A stretch of DNA of 62,804 bases, filler included, from Globobulimina sp. (taxonomy: Eukaryota), in NCBI GenBank assembly GCA_003354225.1. It is 25 parts of 25 records of this genome, joined end to end, with 100 filler letters (N's around TTAATTAATTAA, not from the genome) between each part and the next. Parts side by side here need not be neighbours in the genome. Positions count along the whole stretch, not along the records: positions 15,109 to 17,526 come from PIVH01006802.1; 24 more parts are not named here. One strand, given 5' to 3'. Positions 4,810 to 37,755 of this stretch are shown in pieces. The notes under the pieces were generated by a model that saw only the letters and a program-made list of their open reading frames with translations, was not told the DNA's origin and searched no databases. The position numbers were made by a program, and so were the translations under genes. Each line of letters opens with the position of its first letter. The first letter of the stretch is position 1.

Positions 4810-5600
4810 TTTATAAAAAAAACAAAAAAATTCAAACAATTAATCTGAGTCATTCGCAGTTTTTTGGTTTCCATATACAAATTCCGTAAATCGAATGAGC
4901 GGTGAGGAGGGCATATATGTATATGTCTGTTGTGCGNNNNNNNNNNNNNNNNNNNNNNNNNNNNNNNNNNNNNNNNNNNNTTAATTAATTAANNNNNNNN
5001 NNNNNNNNNNNNNNNNNNNNNNNNNNNNNNNNNNNNAGGAGAATCTTGCATCAATCTAAACTGCTTTTCTGTCTGTTATTATCCATGCAAAAATATAAAG
5101 GACTCAATAATTACTTTTTTGCATTTATGGGTATATAAAATAATTTGTATGTATTTTTATTACATTTTGCTTACAAAAGACCACGAAATCACTGTGATTG
5201 ATACCCTTTTTTTGTATCAAAAGTTGTAAAAGTAAAAAAAATATGAAATGTTTAAATGTATGCAAATCATGAAAAACTGTCAAAAATAAATAATAGCACA
5301 TCAAAAACGAAAATGAGCAACTATTGGCGCATTTAGTGCTATTTTTGCAACTTGTATTACCACTAAAACTATAAGCCAAATGTCAATTGATATTATGGCC
5401 GAATTAATGGTCGTTTATTATTGGAAAGAAATAAGAGCATCCGGTTTTCAGCGTCAGATTTATGTTACGCTGTTCATCAATCAGCTCTTCAATACATCGC
5501 AGATTCGAACCATTCAACAACAAAACAAACCAAAGCAACATATTAAAAAACAACAACAAAACAAACCAAAATTATGTTAGAAAATAAGTACATATTTACA

Positions 5601-7330
5601 TCATTTTTTTTGTTTAATAAAATAATTTAAAATACACATTCTATGATCAATATCATACAAAGCGGCATAATTATGTTCCGCCAATTCAATCTCTTTCAAC
5701 TTGTCATATAATTCCACCCTTTGTTCCAACCTTTCTTTTCTCGACGCCTTGTACCCATAATTCACGCCTTCCTTTTCTAAAAACACATTCTTTCTCACTT
5801 TTTTCCAAGAATGCGCCAGCCCCCACTTTAACATCCGGGCCTTACTGATATGTCCATCCAACTTCGTATCCAATCCTTTAACGGCAATATCCGAATCTTT
5901 GCCCACCACATCAAACAAATCGCGCACAAACTGCCGACACCGATCATTCGAAATAAAACCTTCGCCTTCGTCGTCGTACGCATCGAACGACTCTGATAAC
6001 TCTTCCTTCCTTTCCTCATAATCGCGCGACAAGACTCGCGGCCCTCTTTTGCTGACATCCGGTTCCCAGACTTGCCGCTCTTCCTTCTTCTCATCGCTTT
6101 CCTCGCTCTCATTACCCACATCCTTATCGTCCATATTTCCGCCATTCTTCACTTTGTTATACTCCGTCTCCTGTTTCTTGTTAAACGCCGTCAAAATCCG
6201 CGTCGCTTTCTTCTCGTTGCTGCGCTCAAAAACCACCAACAACTCGTAACAAAATTGCCTTTTCCCTCTGTCCTCGTCTTGCTTGAGACCGTCCGATATA
6301 ACGTTCTTGGTCAACTCCCAAAATTCTTTGCCGGGCTTTATTTTGGCTTTGGGATTGCCCGCCTTTTTCAAGTACACTTTGATGCCCTCATAGCAGCCTC
6401 GCTGTACACTGGCGAAGTCCTTCAAAGTGGTGCCTTGGATCAGTGTCTTCAACACCTTATTGTCCGCGTCGTCGGGCACATATCTCAGCAAACATTTGCT
6501 TAGCATCAAGGCGGAAAACGACGACAACGCGTCCGGGCAATCGTAGATCTCCCAGCACACGTTCAAGATCTTAGAAACTTGCGACTTCAAATTGCCTTTT
6601 TTAGACTTGGCGATATCAGACAAAACCATACATGCATTGCGTACGATATGCGCGTTTTTGCTGCGTAGCGCAGCCAATAATCCCGGCAATAGTTTGACGA
6701 TCAGATTCTTGCAATCTCGGTCCTTTATGTCTGGAGTGGCGATCATATCGCCGCAGACACGCAAAGCCATTAATTGTTCCTTGAAATCGCCCTTTTTCTG
6801 TTTCAAAATCGCCTTTAACTGTTCCGGCGAATATGGCCCCTCAATGGTGGAGAAATGGATGTATCGCTTTGCTTTCATCAGTTCTTTCCATATCGCGTTG
6901 TATTGCGGATACGCACCGTACACCGCTTGGACAAAGGCCTCGAATTCTAAGGCTTCCTCCTTTTCGAAATCTAACGCTCGAAAGGCCTTTTTCGCGATGT
7001 CCATGTCATATTTTTTAATTTCTAATAAGGTCAAACATTCGCAGAATTCGTCGAAATCTACCTCGCCATGGAGAGAGCCTGCTTTTTTTCTGGGTTTTAA
7101 TTTATAGGCAAAGTGTGTGTAATGTCGTTGAATGGAATGGAATGGAATGGAATTATTAGTCTTAACTCAAATACTTGGATGAATTTTCTACTGCGTGCAA
7201 TTGTTAATAATTGCGGATCATAAGCAACACCGTCGTCTGCATCATCTGCGTCTGTTGCTTTCAAGCCCATTCGTTTCCTTTTTGCAGCGATTTCTGCTCT
7301 TTTTTGCTTGCTTGTTTTCTTGGATGACAT
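5601..7330 (-). CDS. EF-hand + TOG/CLASP-N-like HEAT + EF-hand protein; intron 7090-7166
   Basis: Splice gives KFIQVFEKKAGSLHGEVDFDEF; LRSKNAHIVRNAC HEAT motif; DAYDDEGEGFIS and DTKLDGHISK EF loops. Confidence 0.6.
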
Positions 7331-12590: not shown

Positions 12591-13515
12591 TGGGAAGAAC
12601 TGCCAGCGCACTATAAACGGCAAACCCGGCGGGGAGGGCGGCTTCAACCTGACTGGAACGTACATTGACCAGCATATAGGAAATTAGTTCTGAAACACCG
12701 TGCCGGTTGAAGACAATTTCGATAACATACACGCCCATAATGATCGATGCGGCGGAGAGGCCCGTGCTAGTGAGTCCGGGGATCATCGCGTTTCTGAAAC
12801 CATGCTGCCAAATAATGCCCCGGTTGGAAAGGCCAATGGACTTGGCTCGGCGAATATAATCTTTGCCTAATTCATCGATCATGGACGAGCGGGTAACCAG
12901 CCCAAGTGTAGCCAGATGGACCAAACTTAGTGCGATCGTTGGAAGGATCAAATGTTTCAGAGCATCGAGAGTAACATCAGGTCTGCCATTGAGCAGTCCG
13001 TCGATGGTGATCAAGTAGGTGTAGTTTTTGAACCTCTCATGATTAATTATCAGCGCAGACTTCAGGCTAACCTCCCCAGGTGGAAACCAATTTACCCCAG
13101 CATAAAAAATACTGAGGAGTAGCAACCCCAGGAGAAAGGGAGGAATCGAAATACCTATAAAGCTGGTCAGTCGGAATCCCCGGTCTAGTAAGGATTCTTT
13201 TTTCCATCCCGAGTAAGTCCCCAATAGCAATCCCAGCGGGATGAAGAGCAACAGAGAATATAAAGTAAGTTCCAAGGTTGAAGGGGTGCGGACGAGCAGG
13301 GCCTCAAGTACATCTTGACCGACATTTGGGCTCCAGCCCCAATTCCCTTGGATAAGTTGAGTGAGCCAACGAAAATATTGAACCGGATAAGGATCGTCTA
13401 AGCCATATTCTCGGATGATCACATTGAGCACGCGATGGATTTGTTCATCGCTCTTTGGTTTGTACTCGTCTGGCAAATAAACTGCGGCTCTGGCTTCCAC
13501 TGGGACGAGCATCAC
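12591..13515 (-). CDS. Bacterial peptide/nickel ABC transporter permease (DppB/OppB family), truncated at both ends
   Basis: YGLDDPYPVQYFRWL..GNWGWS, TLEL, HLILP, and EAA-loop region DYIRRAKSIGL..HGFRNAMIP. Confidence 0.9.
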
Positions 13516-15008
13516 AATTGCGTAAATCTATTATGTCTACGTTTCAGGAAATGGAGCATACAAAAAAGACTCAACATATTAAAACATTGACCATCTTAAA
13601 ACTTCGTATCTCAAATCCTATAATACGTATATTGCCAACACTAATCTCATTTTGTTTAAATGCAACCTCTATAAAAATGGAACTAGAATACCCGAGTCAA
13701 CAGAGCATTGAATTCGAAATGATGCATAATCGGCGAGTTGAAGCAAACCGCCTTGATTTTAATGATGATCACCATTCGCATCACAATGAGGATGATTATA
13801 ATTCATTAATGGTAACGGAAGAGACTGTAATTAAATATATGCGACAATTATTTCATACCATTTCGTACCTACCAAATGTTCAAGTTTTATTCATTCGATT
13901 CATTGACTTTCCGTTGGATGTTTACAAAGATTATATTTCAATGTGTTTCAATTTAAAAGCCACAAATTATAAATCTTTTCCTTCCTTAAAATCGCTAACT
14001 TTCCCAATTGATAATAATAACATTCGCGTCTATATTGAGCGAGAATATTGGTCCATGTTTAAACATTTTATTGATAGACATCATTTGAATCAATTTACAT
14101 TGTTGTTGGATGCAGAAATGTCACATTTAAATGATATTTTTATTCAAGCAACAACCAATTTATTCAACCAATTTTGCAATGTATTTCTACCCACTTTATT
14201 GAATAGAAAATATGCATTAAAAACGTTGGGCATTTTAGCGCAATCTCCAATGAATGTGTTATGTGATAATAATGGAATGTGTTATTCACTGATAGCTCCA
14301 TTTTTTGATTTACATTCAATTCATTTGCAAAGTTTAAACGAATTTAATTTATATTTGCCAAATACGCCAAATATGAATGATATGTTGCGTTTATTAACAT
14401 TTATCACAGAAAGTGAGAATAAATTAATTAAATTTCGATTGGAATTGCCAAATAATTTCAGATATAAAAAAGACACCAAAAAATTGTTACAAATAATGGC
14501 AAAATTTGTCAACAAAAACAAACAATTAAATGAATTGCATTTTCATGTTACAAAAATTGTGAATAATATTGGAATTAAACAGTTATTTAAAAGTATTCGA
14601 AACCATCCAAATTTAATTATATTTGAAATGTCCGAGATTCAGATTAATGCAATAACATGGAATGCATTTCTCGACATTTTTCATAATGATAATGATATGA
14701 ATACCAAACGGAACACAAATTTACAAGTTTTTAAGCTTCATTTTAAATATAAACCATGGCATAAGATTTTAGAAAATAAAAAATTAAATATGTCCAACAA
14801 TGATATATTGACAATCATTGATGTACTATTTAAAAATCAGCAATATTTATATCAACAAATAAAAATATTTGAAAAATTGATGAAAGACATATATAATATG
14901 AATATGGATATAATTCTTATTCTGAATTCCTTCATTTTTAATCAAAATATATTAACAATGAAAATATGTGGTTTATCGCATGAAATTAAAAAGAAAAATA
15001 TTGATTGT
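13516..15008 (+). CDS. Eukaryotic RNI/LRR-like hypothetical protein, truncated
   Basis: Long AT-rich ORF with LxxLxL repeats (FPSLKSLTF, LKTLGI, LNELHF, NLQVFKL). Confidence 0.5.
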
Positions 15009-15109
15009 NNNNNNNNNNNNNNNNNNNNNNNNNNNNNNNNNNNNNNNNNNNNTTAATTAATTAANNNNNNNNNNNNNNNNNNNNNNNNNNNNNNNNNNNN
15101 NNNNNNNNA

Positions 15110-16988
15110 CACCCCGCAGTCGCAACAAACCCGACAGTAAGGAGTTTTTACAAAGAGTGGGAACAGCAAACCCCCCCTAAAAGTCCACCAAAATGGCACC
15201 TACCCACTGGTACGTTTATGAAAGCATTGCAGGAATTGCCAGATGGAAAGACGGGCGGTATTGGACATCCCGACAAGGAATTGCATGCAAAGATGTATGA
15301 TTTATTGGAGAATGGCAGCAAAATTGAATAGAAATGAGGATGCAGAATATCCCCTCAATGTTGATCAGCATATACAACGCTGTGAAACAGTACAGAAACG
15401 AATCAAAGATAAGGCGCTATGGGGGCCTCATCATGAAAATAGAATGCCGGAAGGATACGAGGATTATCATTTAAATCCCGTATTTTTCAAAGACGAAACG
15501 CCAATCGGTGGGAAGAGGAAGGAAAGAATGATTGTGGACTGCTCCAAAGCCAGTACACAAGGATTTGCACCAAATGATAATATCTTCGAATGGGAGAAAT
15601 CGTGCGAATATATTACGATACTGACAATAATTAGAATGATTGTTAGCTGTGGCATAAAATGGATGGTTGCAGCTGACGCACAAAATGCATTTAACAGAGT
15701 ACCAATAAATAACAAATTTATCAGATGGTATGCGATGAAGATTGGAGTATGGATCTTTATGTGGACAGCATTGGTATTTGGCGGAGCATCAAGCTGCAAT
15801 ATATACGCTATGTTTGCAGGTACATTGGCGTGGATTATCGCAAATACGTACCAGTATATATTCTATATTGATAATGTATGTATACTCAGAAACTATTTGG
15901 ATGACTTCTTCGCGGGACATAGAAGCGAAGCAATGTGTTGGCAGCAATATTACGCTATAAAATGGATGTTCCAATGGCTGGGAGTGCCAACACAGGAAAA
16001 GAAGTTAATAACACCAACACAGATATTGATATGGATTGGTTTTATTATTAATTTGATAACGCAAACGCTATCAATACCGATGAACAAAATAACAAAGACA
16101 TTAATGAAAGCAACCATTTTAATGGAAGCACATAAGAAAAAACAAGACGTGGAAGCACGGCAAATATCGCAATATATTGGAATTGCAAGACATATATCAT
16201 ACGTACATTATTATATAATACCGGGACTGCGGAGATTGGAGGAAGCTGTGTCGGGAAAAGACCCAACGCAGAAAGTGAAAATAACAGTGGAAATGGCCAG
16301 GGATATCGAGATGGTCATGAAACCCATCAGAAAATCACAGAATAACAGCATCAAATTCAGCTGGTTGCTATATGACAAAGCAAGCGCTGACATGACAATA
16401 GAAACTGACGCCGCTGGAAAGCTTGGCATTGGAGGCATTGTGATGGAGGATACGGGAATGTTTTATGGAACAATGTACCATCAAATGACTGAATGGAATG
16501 AAGCCAATCCACCGGATATCGTATATCTGGAACTTATGGCTATATATGTAATGCTAAAAATAAACCCGGAGCAATGGACCGGGAAAGCACTACTTTTATT
16601 ATGTGATAACAAGGCAGTTTGCGCCATTGTGGCCAAAAAATGTGCCTGTTTCTACAGAAAGGATTTGCAAGAACTAATAAGGAGAATATGTGAATTATGC
16701 AACGCTTATTGTTTTTATATATGGATTGAATGGATTGCATCGCTTATGAATCCAAGAGCTGATGGACTATCGAGAGGAAAGCCATACGCATTGGAAACAT
16801 GTGATAGAAGTTGGAAACTCAGAAATAAATCAAGAGAGTCACTAAAATATGCAAATGAAGCTTTAACTGTATACAAAGAAGCAAGGAAACGGATGGCTAA
16901 TTTGAAAGGAAAACGCAAAGAATGTACATGTGATAATCAATTCGCATGCGAGCAACAGAAAGTATATCCAAAATGGAGAGCAAATTAA
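15110..16988 (+). CDS. Pol: reverse transcriptase + DIRS-type RNase H; apparent frameshift near 15325-15335
   Basis: RMIVDCS..PNDNI, DAQNAFNRVPI, LVFGGASS, YLDD (15894-15905), WIGFII; RNase H ETDA, LELMAI, CDN, N.RADGLSR. Confidence 0.92.
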
Positions 16989-17095
16989 TAAACTTGCATT
17001 GCTAACTTTTTTTTCTTTTTACCAAAAGTCGATTGTTTTATCTATTTAAAGTTACACTTTATTCGTAAAGTAAAGACCTTAACCTTACTAACTAG

Positions 17096-17526
17096 CAAAA
17101 AACCTGTTTGAACATACAACTAAAGGCGCGACAAACGAAACGGTTCAAACCGAGAAGAATGACAAGACAGCAATTTCAGAAAAAAAGACAAGAAAATTGG
17201 CAATATAGACATGCGCCAAACACCAATGAACAATATGGATCAATAGAAAAGTATTGGACAATATTTAGCAAAATACACGAAAGACCGATCGACGATTTTA
17301 GTGAGAATAACATCATAGATTACATGATATGGAATAAAGAATGTAAGAAAGCATTCGGATGGACGGCAATCCATTCACATCAATATGGATTAAAAGATAT
17401 TGCCCTTAAATATAACAAGAACATAAAAGTCGCAAAAGAGTATATGCCAAACCTGCATAATCATAAAATAGCAGAAAAGAGGCAAAACCCTGGCAAGGGC
17501 GGATCGAGACCGATCGATGAAACAAT
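17096..17526 (+). CDS. Tyrosine recombinase N-terminal core-binding domain, 3'-truncated
   Basis: APNTNEQYGSIEKYWTIF..IIDYM..TAIHSHQYGLK..SRPI resembles the DIRS/Cre-like YR N-terminus; position after RNase H fits. Confidence 0.65.
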
Positions 17527-35140: not shown

Positions 35141-35294
35141 NNNNNNNNNNNNNNNNNNNNNNNNNNNNNNNNNNNNNNNNNNNNTTAATTAATTAANNNN
35201 NNNNNNNNNNNNNNNNNNNNNNNNNNNNNNNNNNNNNNNNAAACCACAATAGATTCCACCACATCTTCGAGGAAAAGGAATTAAAAAATTGAAT

Positions 35295-36146
35295 ATGAAC
35301 CAGGAACATCATAATAATAATAACAGTGATACGACAATAATTAAATGGTACAGCGATGAGAAAGAATTTGAATCAAAATTAGGAGTTTCATTATCTTCGT
35401 TTAAATTAAATATAGCATCATATAGAAATGATAAACAATTGAATGAATTGACAAAGATAAATCTATCAAAAGCAAATGCAAACAAATCTGTATTATTTGT
35501 ATTTGGACCTCCGGCTGTCGGAAAATCGACAATTTATAGATATTATTTGTTGGAATTTGGTATATACGATGCAGTAAATACTGACGGTGATATTGTACGG
35601 AAAACACACTATGGAATTCAGGAATATTTGCGGAAAAGCAATGAATTAAATATTGGCTATTATGAATTCTTTAAAAAATATTGTAAATATTGGTCAGCAA
35701 ATTGGAAGTTTGAAATTCGTCAAAAAGCTATGAAGCACAGACAAAATATCATTGCATTTTCAACTTGTCACAAATTGGATGAATGCATCAAAGAAATCAA
35801 TTCGTTTTTTCATAATGGATATCGTATTAAAATATTAATGGTTTGCGCTGAATTTGATAAATGCAATGAAATGGGCATACAAAGGGAGAGATTGAACGGA
35901 AGAAAACATTTAAGCGCGACTTATAACAAAAGCATGCAGGGCTCAATGGATGTTATTGATTATTTATTAGAAACCAATAAAATTAACACCAAAAATAATG
36001 ATTTAATTGTTGTTAGGAATGCGTATGAAATAAATCAACCACCGGAAAGACTCAATGCTGACTGGGAAAATATAAAACATCGCATATTGCTTCCAATGAA
36101 AAAACGAGCAACGCGTCCAATTGACAGGACTTATAATAATTTATAA
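35295..36146 (+). CDS. P-loop kinase, zeta-toxin/AAA_33-like
   Basis: VLFVFGPPAVGKST Walker A; DGDIVRKTH; GY.I.IL.V and R..LNGR. Confidence 0.65.
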   Translation: MNQEHHNNNNSDTTIIKWYSDEKEFESKLGVSLSSFKLNIASYRNDKQLNELTKINLSKANANKSVLFVFGPPAVGKSTIYRYYLLEFGIYDAVNTDGDIVRKTHYGIQEYLRKSNELNIGYYEFFKKYCKYWSANWKFEIRQKAMKHRQNIIAFSTCHKLDECIKEINSFFHNGYRIKILMVCAEFDKCNEMGIQRERLNGRKHLSATYNKSMQGSMDVIDYLLETNKINTKNNDLIVVRNAYEINQPPERLNADWENIKHRILLPMKKRATRPIDRTYNNL

Positions 36147-36181
36147 TAACTGCTCGAGCCCGCTGTCATTGACATAAAAAA

Positions 36182-37629
36182 TCAGGATTCTAATTTTTTT
36201 TGAATGATTTTTTGAATTTGCTCAGTGTTTGGCATGAATTCTAAGTCTGCCACAAGACACAAATGATCAGAGACATAATCTTTGTTTGGTAAAAAGGGCC
36301 ATTTCTTACCACTTTCAATTTCTTTTTCTCCGATAACACTAAAATCATTTTTTTCAATATTAATCATTGAGTCCAAGTTTATTATATGATATGATAAGTC
36401 ATTTTGTATTGGATGCTCCAAATACGATAAAATCCGAAAATTATCATTACAAAAAATATAATCAATTGTGCCACTAAAATGTGGGACATGATTGGTCCAA
36501 ATTGGTTCATCCGATGCTGTTCCATACACACTTTTCCATCGCAGATTTGTTTCATAGTCACATAAATCGCAAATATATTCTAACTCCAATAGTTTTGGAT
36601 ATTTTTCACTGTCGGTTATGGTTTTGGATAAATATTGAATATCAATTGCTTTCTTCTCTGCAATAATGTCAGCTTCACTCTTAAACATCTTGTCATTTTG
36701 CAAAAACTTACTAGAAAAATCTTCATTTAAATCATGTCGCTCTTCAGCCTTTTCCTCTTCCCTTTGTTTAGTATAATGAATTGATCGATATATCTTTTCG
36801 TAAATCCTTGTTTTTGGGTGGTCAGCATGCTCACATTTGACATTACATTGAGTCATTAACTGATAAACACCAGACATCATAGACTCTCCTTGCTGTTCAT
36901 TTATAAATGGATCATATCGATCTGCCTTTGTCTTAACAGGCAATGCATTAAAATCGCCACAACAAATGATTGGAATTTGATTTATATTCAAATTCCATCC
37001 ATTTGTAATCACCTCATTCAATGCTTCATTAATCATCAACGTTTGTGCTAATTTAATTTGTGGCTGTTTCGGGTTCCAATGTAAATGCGTTGTACTTGCA
37101 ATCAATTCATATGATTGTTGTTGTAACATTTGCAAATGTAAAACAATCAAAACATCCGGACATTGTTTCAATGCTTTACAGCGAAAATAAGATTGTTTAT
37201 CTCCAAAATACTTATCATATTTTGGCAAATCACACTCTTTGTTGAGTCTTATTATTGTTTTATTTAATAATTTAAATTTGTTTCTATTATAAGCAATTGT
37301 ATCCGTTGTGCCATCAAAGCCTAATTTATGTCCATTTTCATCACGAATTGCATGAATCGAATCATATCCAATCAAATCCAATTCCATTTGCAATGAGTTA
37401 TGATATGTTTTATAAGTCGTTTCTTGTAATCCTATAATATCCGGCGAAAACGCTTCAATTTCGGATATAAAATACGTTTTTTACGGTAATTCCATTTGCG
37501 ATATTTCAATGCCGTATAATTGAGATCTGTATTTAATGCATATCTCGCTCCATCTGCTAAAATATTGTAGCTCATTATACGAAGTGACGGTAATTGCAAG
37601 TTCTGATTCGGAATGGCAACATTCACCAT
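36182..37629 (-). CDS. CCR4/nocturnin/PDE12-family EEP nuclease with a frameshift near 37468
   Basis: IMSYNILA, (shifted) PDIIGLQE, TTHLHWNP, CGDFNA, FSGTIDYIF, SDH. Confidence 0.85.
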
Positions 37630-37755
37630 TCTTCGATGCGAACGATAGAAGTTTANNNNNNNNNNNNNNNNNNNNNNNNNNNNNNNNNNNNNNNNNNNNT
37701 TAATTAATTAANNNNNNNNNNNNNNNNNNNNNNNNNNNNNNNNNNNNNNNNNNNN

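Follow-up and report, generated by a model that had tools for sequence, protein, structure and literature searches.

A contig of 2.4 kb from the Globobulimina sp. assembly GCA_003354225.1 (PIVH01006802.1, exactly positions 15109-17526 of the window) is likely an internal fragment of a DIRS-order tyrosine-recombinase retrotransposon with a Ngaro-type layout, belonging to a diverged multi-copy family of a protist that is probably a foraminifer. The window is the whole stretch of DNA that was analysed, 62,804 bases made of 25 contigs of 2414-2418 nucleotides (nt) each, ordered by size and joined by spacers of the form N44-TTAATTAATTAA-N44. Since these are unrelated contigs set end to end, adjacency in the window is uninformative, and the neighbours of the contig under study are not its genomic context. 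The proposed layout comprises a gag gene (off the contig), a pol gene encoding only a reverse transcriptase (RT) and an RNase H, and a tyrosine recombinase gene, of which a second open reading frame (ORF), ORF2, would be the beginning. All features of this contig described below lie on the plus strand.

Predicted RT and RNase H domains in the pol frame

The main pol frame (15222-16988) runs for 588 codons from stop to stop (15222-16985, closed by TAA at 16986-16988) and holds the RT, the RNase H and a C-terminal tail. The RT core (15585-16007, residues 122-262) is matched by the Pfam family RVT_1 with an E-value of 6.7e-7 and 29.6 bits, a score exactly equal to the curated Pfam cut-off, and a YLDD box occupies residues 225-228 (15894-15905). 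The RNase H domain follows at about residues 385-520 (16374-16781), with the motifs ETDA (residues 394-397), LELMAI (436-441), CDN (461-463) and ADGLSR (513-518) and the acidic residues D396, E437, D462 and D514. No substitution occurs at D152, D227, D228, D396, E437 or D462 across 84 family members, and D514 is retained in at least 90%; among the RT columns, Y225 is also invariant or nearly so.

An AlphaFold model of pol, computed with the 84-sequence alignment, is confident (predicted local distance difference test, pLDDT, 90.9; predicted template modelling score, pTM, 0.89) and displays the strand/helix pattern of RNase H at residues 391-517. Its best fold matches in the PDB are the RT or RT-RNase H of Ty3, XMRV, HERV-K, CaMV and HIV-1 (E about 1e-15), and the chains that bear an RNase H align with the model over about 600 columns at 11-15% identity. 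A search of the PDB by sequence with pol gave no relevant match. Because of the Pfam match, the confident fold and the conserved catalytic residues, we consider the RT and RNase H domains to be real and apparently intact.

Upstream of the RT core, the motif R..(I/V)D.S....N..I is found throughout the family, where N118 does not vary among the 84 sequences and R102 and S108 each reach at least 90% conservation, and it is common to relatives that carry a recombinase (at the ORF starts of loci L012 and L015, see below). Downstream of RNase H, the tail of about 70 residues (16782-16985) has no Pfam match and consists of a long helix (residues 537-559 in the model, followed by low-confidence residues) and a K.C.C.....C..Q..Y..W motif. 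The core of this motif, C568-x-C570-x5-C576, reads C-T-C-x5-C (16923-16949, with cysteine codons at 16923, 16929 and 16947), and each of the three cysteines is kept in at least 90% of the 20 closest members of the family (alignment A3). A fourth metal ligand is not obvious in the motif.

The first-pass annotation of this DNA had listed the YLDD box, the four RNase H motifs and a CTC..C tail, all of which are present in the 588-codon frame, and had called the motif before the RT Ngaro-like, in agreement with its being a family-wide signature shared with relatives that carry a recombinase. It had also stated that neither a DDE integrase nor a methyltransferase follows RNase H, and this stands: at the threshold of E <= 1, RVT_1 is the sole Pfam family detected in the 588-residue frame, so that Dam-type methyltransferases, rve integrases and proteases are all absent by this test, and the roughly 70 residues beyond RNase H leave no room for a Dam-like methyltransferase.

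These last observations bear on the possibility of a PAT-like or DIRS1-like element, which would belong to the same order, DIRS, but to a superfamily characterised by an adenine-methyltransferase domain and, in the case of DIRS1, by termini that are inverted repeats. In its favour, PAT-like elements have the recombinase after pol and split direct repeats as well, according to the available part of PMC6681497, and the tree presented below was built without labelled references. However, DIRS pol includes a methyltransferase that is detectable with the Pfam Dam family, as given in the accessible text of PMC3783388, and besides its absence from our pol frame no methyltransferase was found in any of 19 family members scanned, the longest protein among the best 150 profile matches having 827 amino acids (aa). 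We consider a PAT-like or DIRS1-like element very improbable.

A large family of pol proteins and the gene order of its relatives

A word-indexed protein search with pol, over 4562 candidates, returned nine proteins at 40-50% identity and three more at 24-26%, none of them named. With a profile of the close set of pol proteins, run against 1.84 billion representative sequences, 8664 proteins were matched at E <= 1e-3, 2422 at E <= 1e-10 and 276 at E <= 1e-30. The best 150 matches span 140-827 aa, and no form fused to a further large domain occurs among them. We scanned 19 family members with Pfam, the eight longest included, and found RVT_1 in 16 and RNase H-type families in three; methyltransferase, integrase or protease families were found in 0 of the 19. 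By sequence, then, this is a large family whose proteins consist of pol alone. Look-alikes of pol in the Atlas are unnamed or RVT_1 clusters, mostly labelled Mollusca or Euglenozoa.

For the gene order around pol, contigs were scanned. Metagenome and genome contig scans with a close alignment (A1) gave no relative, nor did a scan of viral contigs with the 20-row alignment A3. A scan of JGI metagenome contigs with A3 gave 19 loci, in which pol is 22-32% identical to that of the window. In their ORF maps one succession recurs: a gag-like ORF, pol (about 570-600 aa) and, downstream on the strand of pol, a further ORF of about 329 aa. The gag-like ORF (315-368 aa) is upstream or permuted in L006, L009, L011 and L015, with a weak CCCH zinc-finger match in L006 and L009.

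A recombinase profile, A4, was built from the recombinases of nine of these relatives. A frame matching it lies downstream of RT and RNase H, on the same strand, in 14 of the 14 loci that have enough downstream DNA; the five others (L001, L007, L016, L017 and L019) end too soon for this test. Nine of the 14 positive loci had served to build the profile and five are independent, with E-values of 2e-15 for L010, 5e-5 for L003-5 (three near-identical copies) and 4e-5 for L018. The profile also matches a second piece of L013 (3e-36), which was not used in building it. Of ten downstream ORFs tested with Pfam, eight match Phage_integrase at E <= 0.01, three of them above the curated cut-off, and several relatives have an N-terminal SAM-like domain in this ORF as well. 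A GDSL/SGNH hydrolase-like ORF comes after the recombinase in two loci, L011 (3705-4337, 1.4e-5) and L012 (2119-2538, 1.9e-5), with scores below the Pfam cut-off; a hydrolase ORF is mentioned for some DIRS-order elements in the available portion of PMC6681497.

ORF2 as the start of a putative tyrosine recombinase

On our contig, pol is followed by a spacer of 170 nt (16989-17158), to be compared with gaps of 9-163 nt in L002, L006, L008 and L009, and then by ORF2. The open frame extends over 17096-17526, its first ATG is at 17159, and it is still open at the contig end, so that 122 codons (17159-17526) are available, from a putative N-terminal SAM-like domain to the sequence SRPIDET. Against profile A4, ORF2 obtains an E-value of 3.3e-4 and is at the top of the 276 stop-to-stop ORFs of the window, the next best having 0.48. 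In a comparison of ORF2 with A4 by hhalign the score is 29.8; 200 shuffled sequences gave 12.9 +- 2.5 with a maximum of 21.2, and none was as good. The alignment with the relatives' recombinases is collinear through the SAM-like domain up to an R.PIT box, where ORF2 reads SRPIDET at the very end of the contig.

Two homologues of ORF2, P0179 (76% identity) and P0180 (73%), were the sole matches among six candidates. Both are short predicted proteins (124 and 114 aa, respectively) that start at an internal methionine corresponding to residue 56 of ORF2. When they were added to ORF2 in a profile-profile comparison, the E-value was 1.9e-4 and the probability 48% over 111 collinear columns. The single-sequence fold of ORF2 is poor (pLDDT 52.4, pTM 0.29); it is all-helical and compatible with a SAM-like domain, and we do not count it as evidence. 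Considering the profile match and the position of the frame, ORF2 is very likely the N-terminal third of a recombinase. The recombinase signature that had earlier been claimed for this downstream ORF thus finds its backing in a weak profile match (0/200 shuffles as good) together with gene order.

Several observations weigh against reading the contig in this way. The ORF2 match is weak, at 14 bits, and the hhalign probability is 17% for ORF2 alone and only the above-mentioned 48% with the two homologues. No Pfam integrase or SAM-like family is found at E <= 1 in ORF2, where the best family is MepB-like (0.0037), and longer homologues of ORF2 were sought without success. The extensions of P0179 and P0180 past the contig are about 50 residues long, differ from each other from about their 25th residue on, and contain no clear LR.SE arginine box. 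The contig itself stops just as the catalytic domain begins, and that domain is unseen in this subfamily. In pol, the relatives whose recombinase is verified share only 22-32% identity with this contig. Finally, neither gag nor terminal repeats are present on this internal fragment, a repeat search returning one 22-nt pair at chance level. The sequences of P0179 and P0180 look like those of decayed copies, and the same may hold for many copies of the family.

If ORF2 were an unrelated accessory gene, the contig could be a fragment of a long terminal repeat (LTR) retrotransposon or of a pararetrovirus-like element. The modelled fold is indeed closest to the RT-RNase H of Ty3, retroviruses and caulimoviruses, and the weakness of the ORF2 evidence, with no arginine box in the extended homologues, points in the same direction. 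On the other hand, relatives with complete N-termini have no upstream protease (P0008 and P0001 match RVT_1 only), no integrase is fused past RNase H, a recombinase-like frame is found in all 14 relatives with downstream DNA, and ORF2 alone among the 276 window ORFs matches the recombinase profile. We therefore judge an LTR or pararetrovirus-like origin decidedly unlikely, and a tyrosine-recombinase retrotransposon remains the preferred reading of the contig.

The window element in a tree of RT/RNase H sequences

A tree of 58 RT/RNase H rows and 566 columns was computed by IQ-TREE quick search, with the Shimodaira-Hasegawa-like approximate likelihood ratio test (SH-aLRT) as its only support. 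The rows comprised the pol of this contig, ten locus ORFs and 47 of about 160 family proteins (mostly full-length). The contig's pol is placed, together with P0001-P0008 and P0030, in a clade of nine rows (SH-aLRT 100), which is nested in a clade of 19 rows (100), itself nested in a clade of 50 rows (100, stem length 0.99). The 50-row clade includes L002, L006, L008 and L009, whose recombinases are verified, and L010. Among the remaining rows are L011, L012, L014 and L015, in which a recombinase is present and, in two of them, a GDSL ORF. The deepest supported split therefore has recombinase-bearing elements on either side, and the simplest reading of these sequences is that the whole set, window included, forms one tyrosine-recombinase retroelement group.

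P0010-12, meant as the outgroup, did not form a monophyletic group, and labelled references are absent from the tree, which is for these reasons silent on placement relative to DIRS1, PAT and VIPER. It must be counted against the reading given above that, with a tree lacking labelled DIRS1, PAT, Ngaro and VIPER sequences, the term Ngaro-type denotes an architecture and not a position in a reference phylogeny.

Comparison with known elements

The Ngaro elements considered for comparison were DrNgaro1 of zebrafish, the fungal Ngaro groups 1-4 and the Ngaro types 1-4 of Cafeteria burkhardae. As in Ngaro, the window pol consists of RT and RNase H only, with no protease, DDE integrase or methyltransferase, and a putative recombinase frame comes after it on the same strand; its relatives likewise have a gag-like ORF1 (L006, L011 and L015) and a GDSL hydrolase ORF after the recombinase (L011 and L012). 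The layout of the relatives corresponds to that of Cafeteria Ngaro, described in the accessible part of PMC8547959 as gag / RT(PF00078)-RH / YR(PF00589) with split direct repeats. According to the available text of PMC3783388, Ngaro repeats are arranged A-pol-B-A-B, and DIRS has a pol including a Dam-like methyltransferase and ends that are inverted repeats. Three features set our element apart: its identity to the relatives of verified architecture is only 22-32%, a C-terminal C.C.....C motif is conserved within the 19-row clade and particular to it, and a foraminifer would be its host. Of the further traits that characterise Ngaro, the gag, the catalytic residues of the recombinase and the repeats in the arrangement A1-[ORFs]-B1A2B2 would lie beyond the extent of this contig.

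With PAT-like and DIRS1-like elements the contig shares the broad type of RT/RNase H and a putative tyrosine recombinase in place of an integrase, and with PAT-like elements the order of pol and then recombinase. Unlike the window pol, those elements carry a Dam-like methyltransferase after RNase H; the inverted terminal repeats of DIRS1 are a feature outside the contig's reach. Ty3/gypsy elements and caulimoviruses offer the closest solved RT-RNase H folds (Ty3 4ol8 and CaMV 8r0s), but sequence identity is 11-15%, protease and integrase are absent, and the following gene is a different one. As for the order expected of a Ty3/gypsy LTR element, with a protease before RT and a DDE integrase after RNase H, no rve or RVP family is found in pol.

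We file the element as Ngaro-type because those Ngaro features that can be tested on the contig are present and the methyltransferase that marks DIRS1 and PAT is missing. It is thus Ngaro-type by architecture, and not a proven member of the Ngaro clade. By analogy with known elements, the RT would reverse transcribe a full-length transcript, and the RNA template would be removed by RNase H. The split direct repeats would then pair to give a closed or circular double-stranded complementary DNA (cDNA), and this cDNA would be inserted by the recombinase through site-specific recombination, leaving no target-site duplication. The recombinase catalytic domain, the gag, the repeats and the replication cycle as a whole are what we infer from this analogy.

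Host and copy family

P0180, the homologue 73% identical to ORF2, is labelled EukProt EP00483, Globobulimina turgida, a rotaliid foraminifer (phylum Foraminifera). This is the one taxon label that was obtained for a close homologue. A transcriptome of Globobulimina turgida has reportedly been published. At 73% identity, the label points to the same family in a foraminifer, not necessarily in the same species. Together with the protist-like content of the window (see below), it makes a foraminifer the probable host, as the first-pass annotation had proposed; this one label and the window content argue for that host and do not amount to proof.

Copies of the element were searched among Logan contigs of the sequencing runs of the sample. 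In run X1, 80 contigs match our contig at 80% identity or more, of which six are at 99% or above, two at 95-99%, ten at 90-95% and 62 below 90%, and 55 align only partly. The element is a diverged multi-copy repeat family, for which Logan contigs give no copy number. In runs X2 and X3 of the same sample no Logan contig matching the element was found, and no RNA run containing the sequence is listed among the sequencing runs. The G+C content of the contig is 38%, and that of the other window contigs is 30-43%.

The element may alternatively come from another organism in the sample, such as prey, a symbiont or an animal contaminant. The assembly is impure, as seen in the bacterial-type ABC permease on the contig at 12591-15008, the Atlas look-alikes of pol mostly bear the labels Mollusca or Euglenozoa, and the contig is present in only one of three runs. 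Against such an origin, the sole labelled close homologue comes from a foraminifer data set, the clade of the window is separate from that of the GDSL-bearing elements (which we take to resemble animal Ngaro), the G+C content is inside the range of the other contigs, and many diverged copies occur in the same run. We regard a foreign origin as rather unlikely, and the element as probably belonging to a foraminifer.

Novelty and possible significance

The order of tyrosine-recombinase retrotransposons is a minor one with a patchy distribution. In 2013 Ngaro was stated to be known only from Opisthokonta, in the available text of PMC3783388, and it was later found in a stramenopile, as reported in the accessible part of PMC8547959. 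A literature search judged by titles, with Repbase Reports and subscription journals outside its scope, returned no Ngaro or DIRS element in Foraminifera or Rhizaria; the papers found to mention both foraminifers and Ngaro concern a mollusc and fishes. The element is hence of a known kind that seems undescribed in foraminifera, and it modestly widens the host range of the Ngaro type. The contig is a fragment, damaged as assembled (see below), and presents no new mechanism.

With a foraminiferal multi-copy family, the range of Ngaro would extend to Rhizaria, and this would bear on whether the layout is of early eukaryotic age. It is possible, though doubtful, that the 19-row clade represents a distinct deep lineage of tyrosine-recombinase retroelements devoid of methyltransferase, native to Foraminifera (Rhizaria) and still active in them; this clade is less than 35% identical to any relative of verified architecture. 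If such a deep foraminiferal lineage were real, it would favour a Ngaro layout that arose in early eukaryotes over one that arose in opisthokonts and was transferred later. Foraminiferal genomes are very fragmented and rich in repeats. For their annotators, the element would provide a repeat family to mask and a marker separating host contigs from contaminants.

A frame break near the 5' end of pol

An N-terminal part of pol, open at the 5' end of the contig, occupies 15110-15328 in a frame one base behind that of the RT, and ends with TAG at 15329-15331. By tblastn, residues 2-40 of P0001 and 56-86 of P0008 match 15137-15316 in the frame of 15110, and from 15339 on homology continues in the RT frame (that of 15222). 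In five of nine close relatives the N-terminal part is fused in frame with the RT. As homology changes frame between 15316 and 15339 and the relatives are fused in frame, a +1 break relative to intact relatives is located within 15317-15338, where one base is extra or two are missing and a run of four A's is found. The earlier description of pol was right about the domains and overlooked this break.

A Logan contig covering 15169-15829 has no gap at the break, and it may come from the same data as the assembly. The break is either a lesion or an assembly error, and because of it the copy as assembled is probably not autonomous. We also weighed programmed +1 frameshifting at 15317-15338 but do not take it as the default explanation, the two parts being in one frame in five of the nine close relatives.

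Repeats in the relatives and other contents of the window

Repeats were noted in three of the JGI loci. In L009, the ends 1-35 and 6271-6305 repeat each other (35 nt, 97%), and the gag-like ORF (4848-5951) is positioned after the recombinase; the contig has the appearance of a single element of about 6.27 kb assembled in tandem or in circularly permuted form. In L015, direct repeats of about 190 nt (4-189 and 5498-5657, in several blocks, 96-100%) flank gag, pol and recombinase, the 3' copy being cut by the contig end, and a 37-nt tandem repeat is present at 290-363. The ends of L015 and L009 fit direct or split-direct termini, not inverted ones, and do not by themselves demonstrate the A1-B1A2B2 arrangement. 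L006 has a 9-nt tandem repeat, TTTGCATTA, in about eight copies (1911-2006) between the gag-like ORF and pol.

Across the window, 29 large frames were scanned with Pfam: ten match a family at E <= 1e-5 and 19 match none. The families include histone H2A, PP2C, BTB/POZ, C2H2 zinc fingers, Glyco_transf_49 and one bacterial-type ABC permease, a pattern that suits a divergent protist whose assembly has some bacterial admixture. The permease (BPD_transp_1, E 7.8e-25) is at 12592-13527 on the minus strand of the contig 12591-15008, and its frame is overlapped by the start of an AT-rich orphan frame of 527 codons (13428-15008, plus strand). This contig could be chimeric, a contaminant or the product of gene transfer. 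Lastly, in the contig 35241-37655, a Zeta_toxin/AAA_33-like kinase frame (35253-36143, plus strand, E 1.1e-13) adjoins an Exo_endo_phos frame (36185-37480, minus strand, E 5.6e-8), a candidate non-LTR retrotransposon endonuclease.

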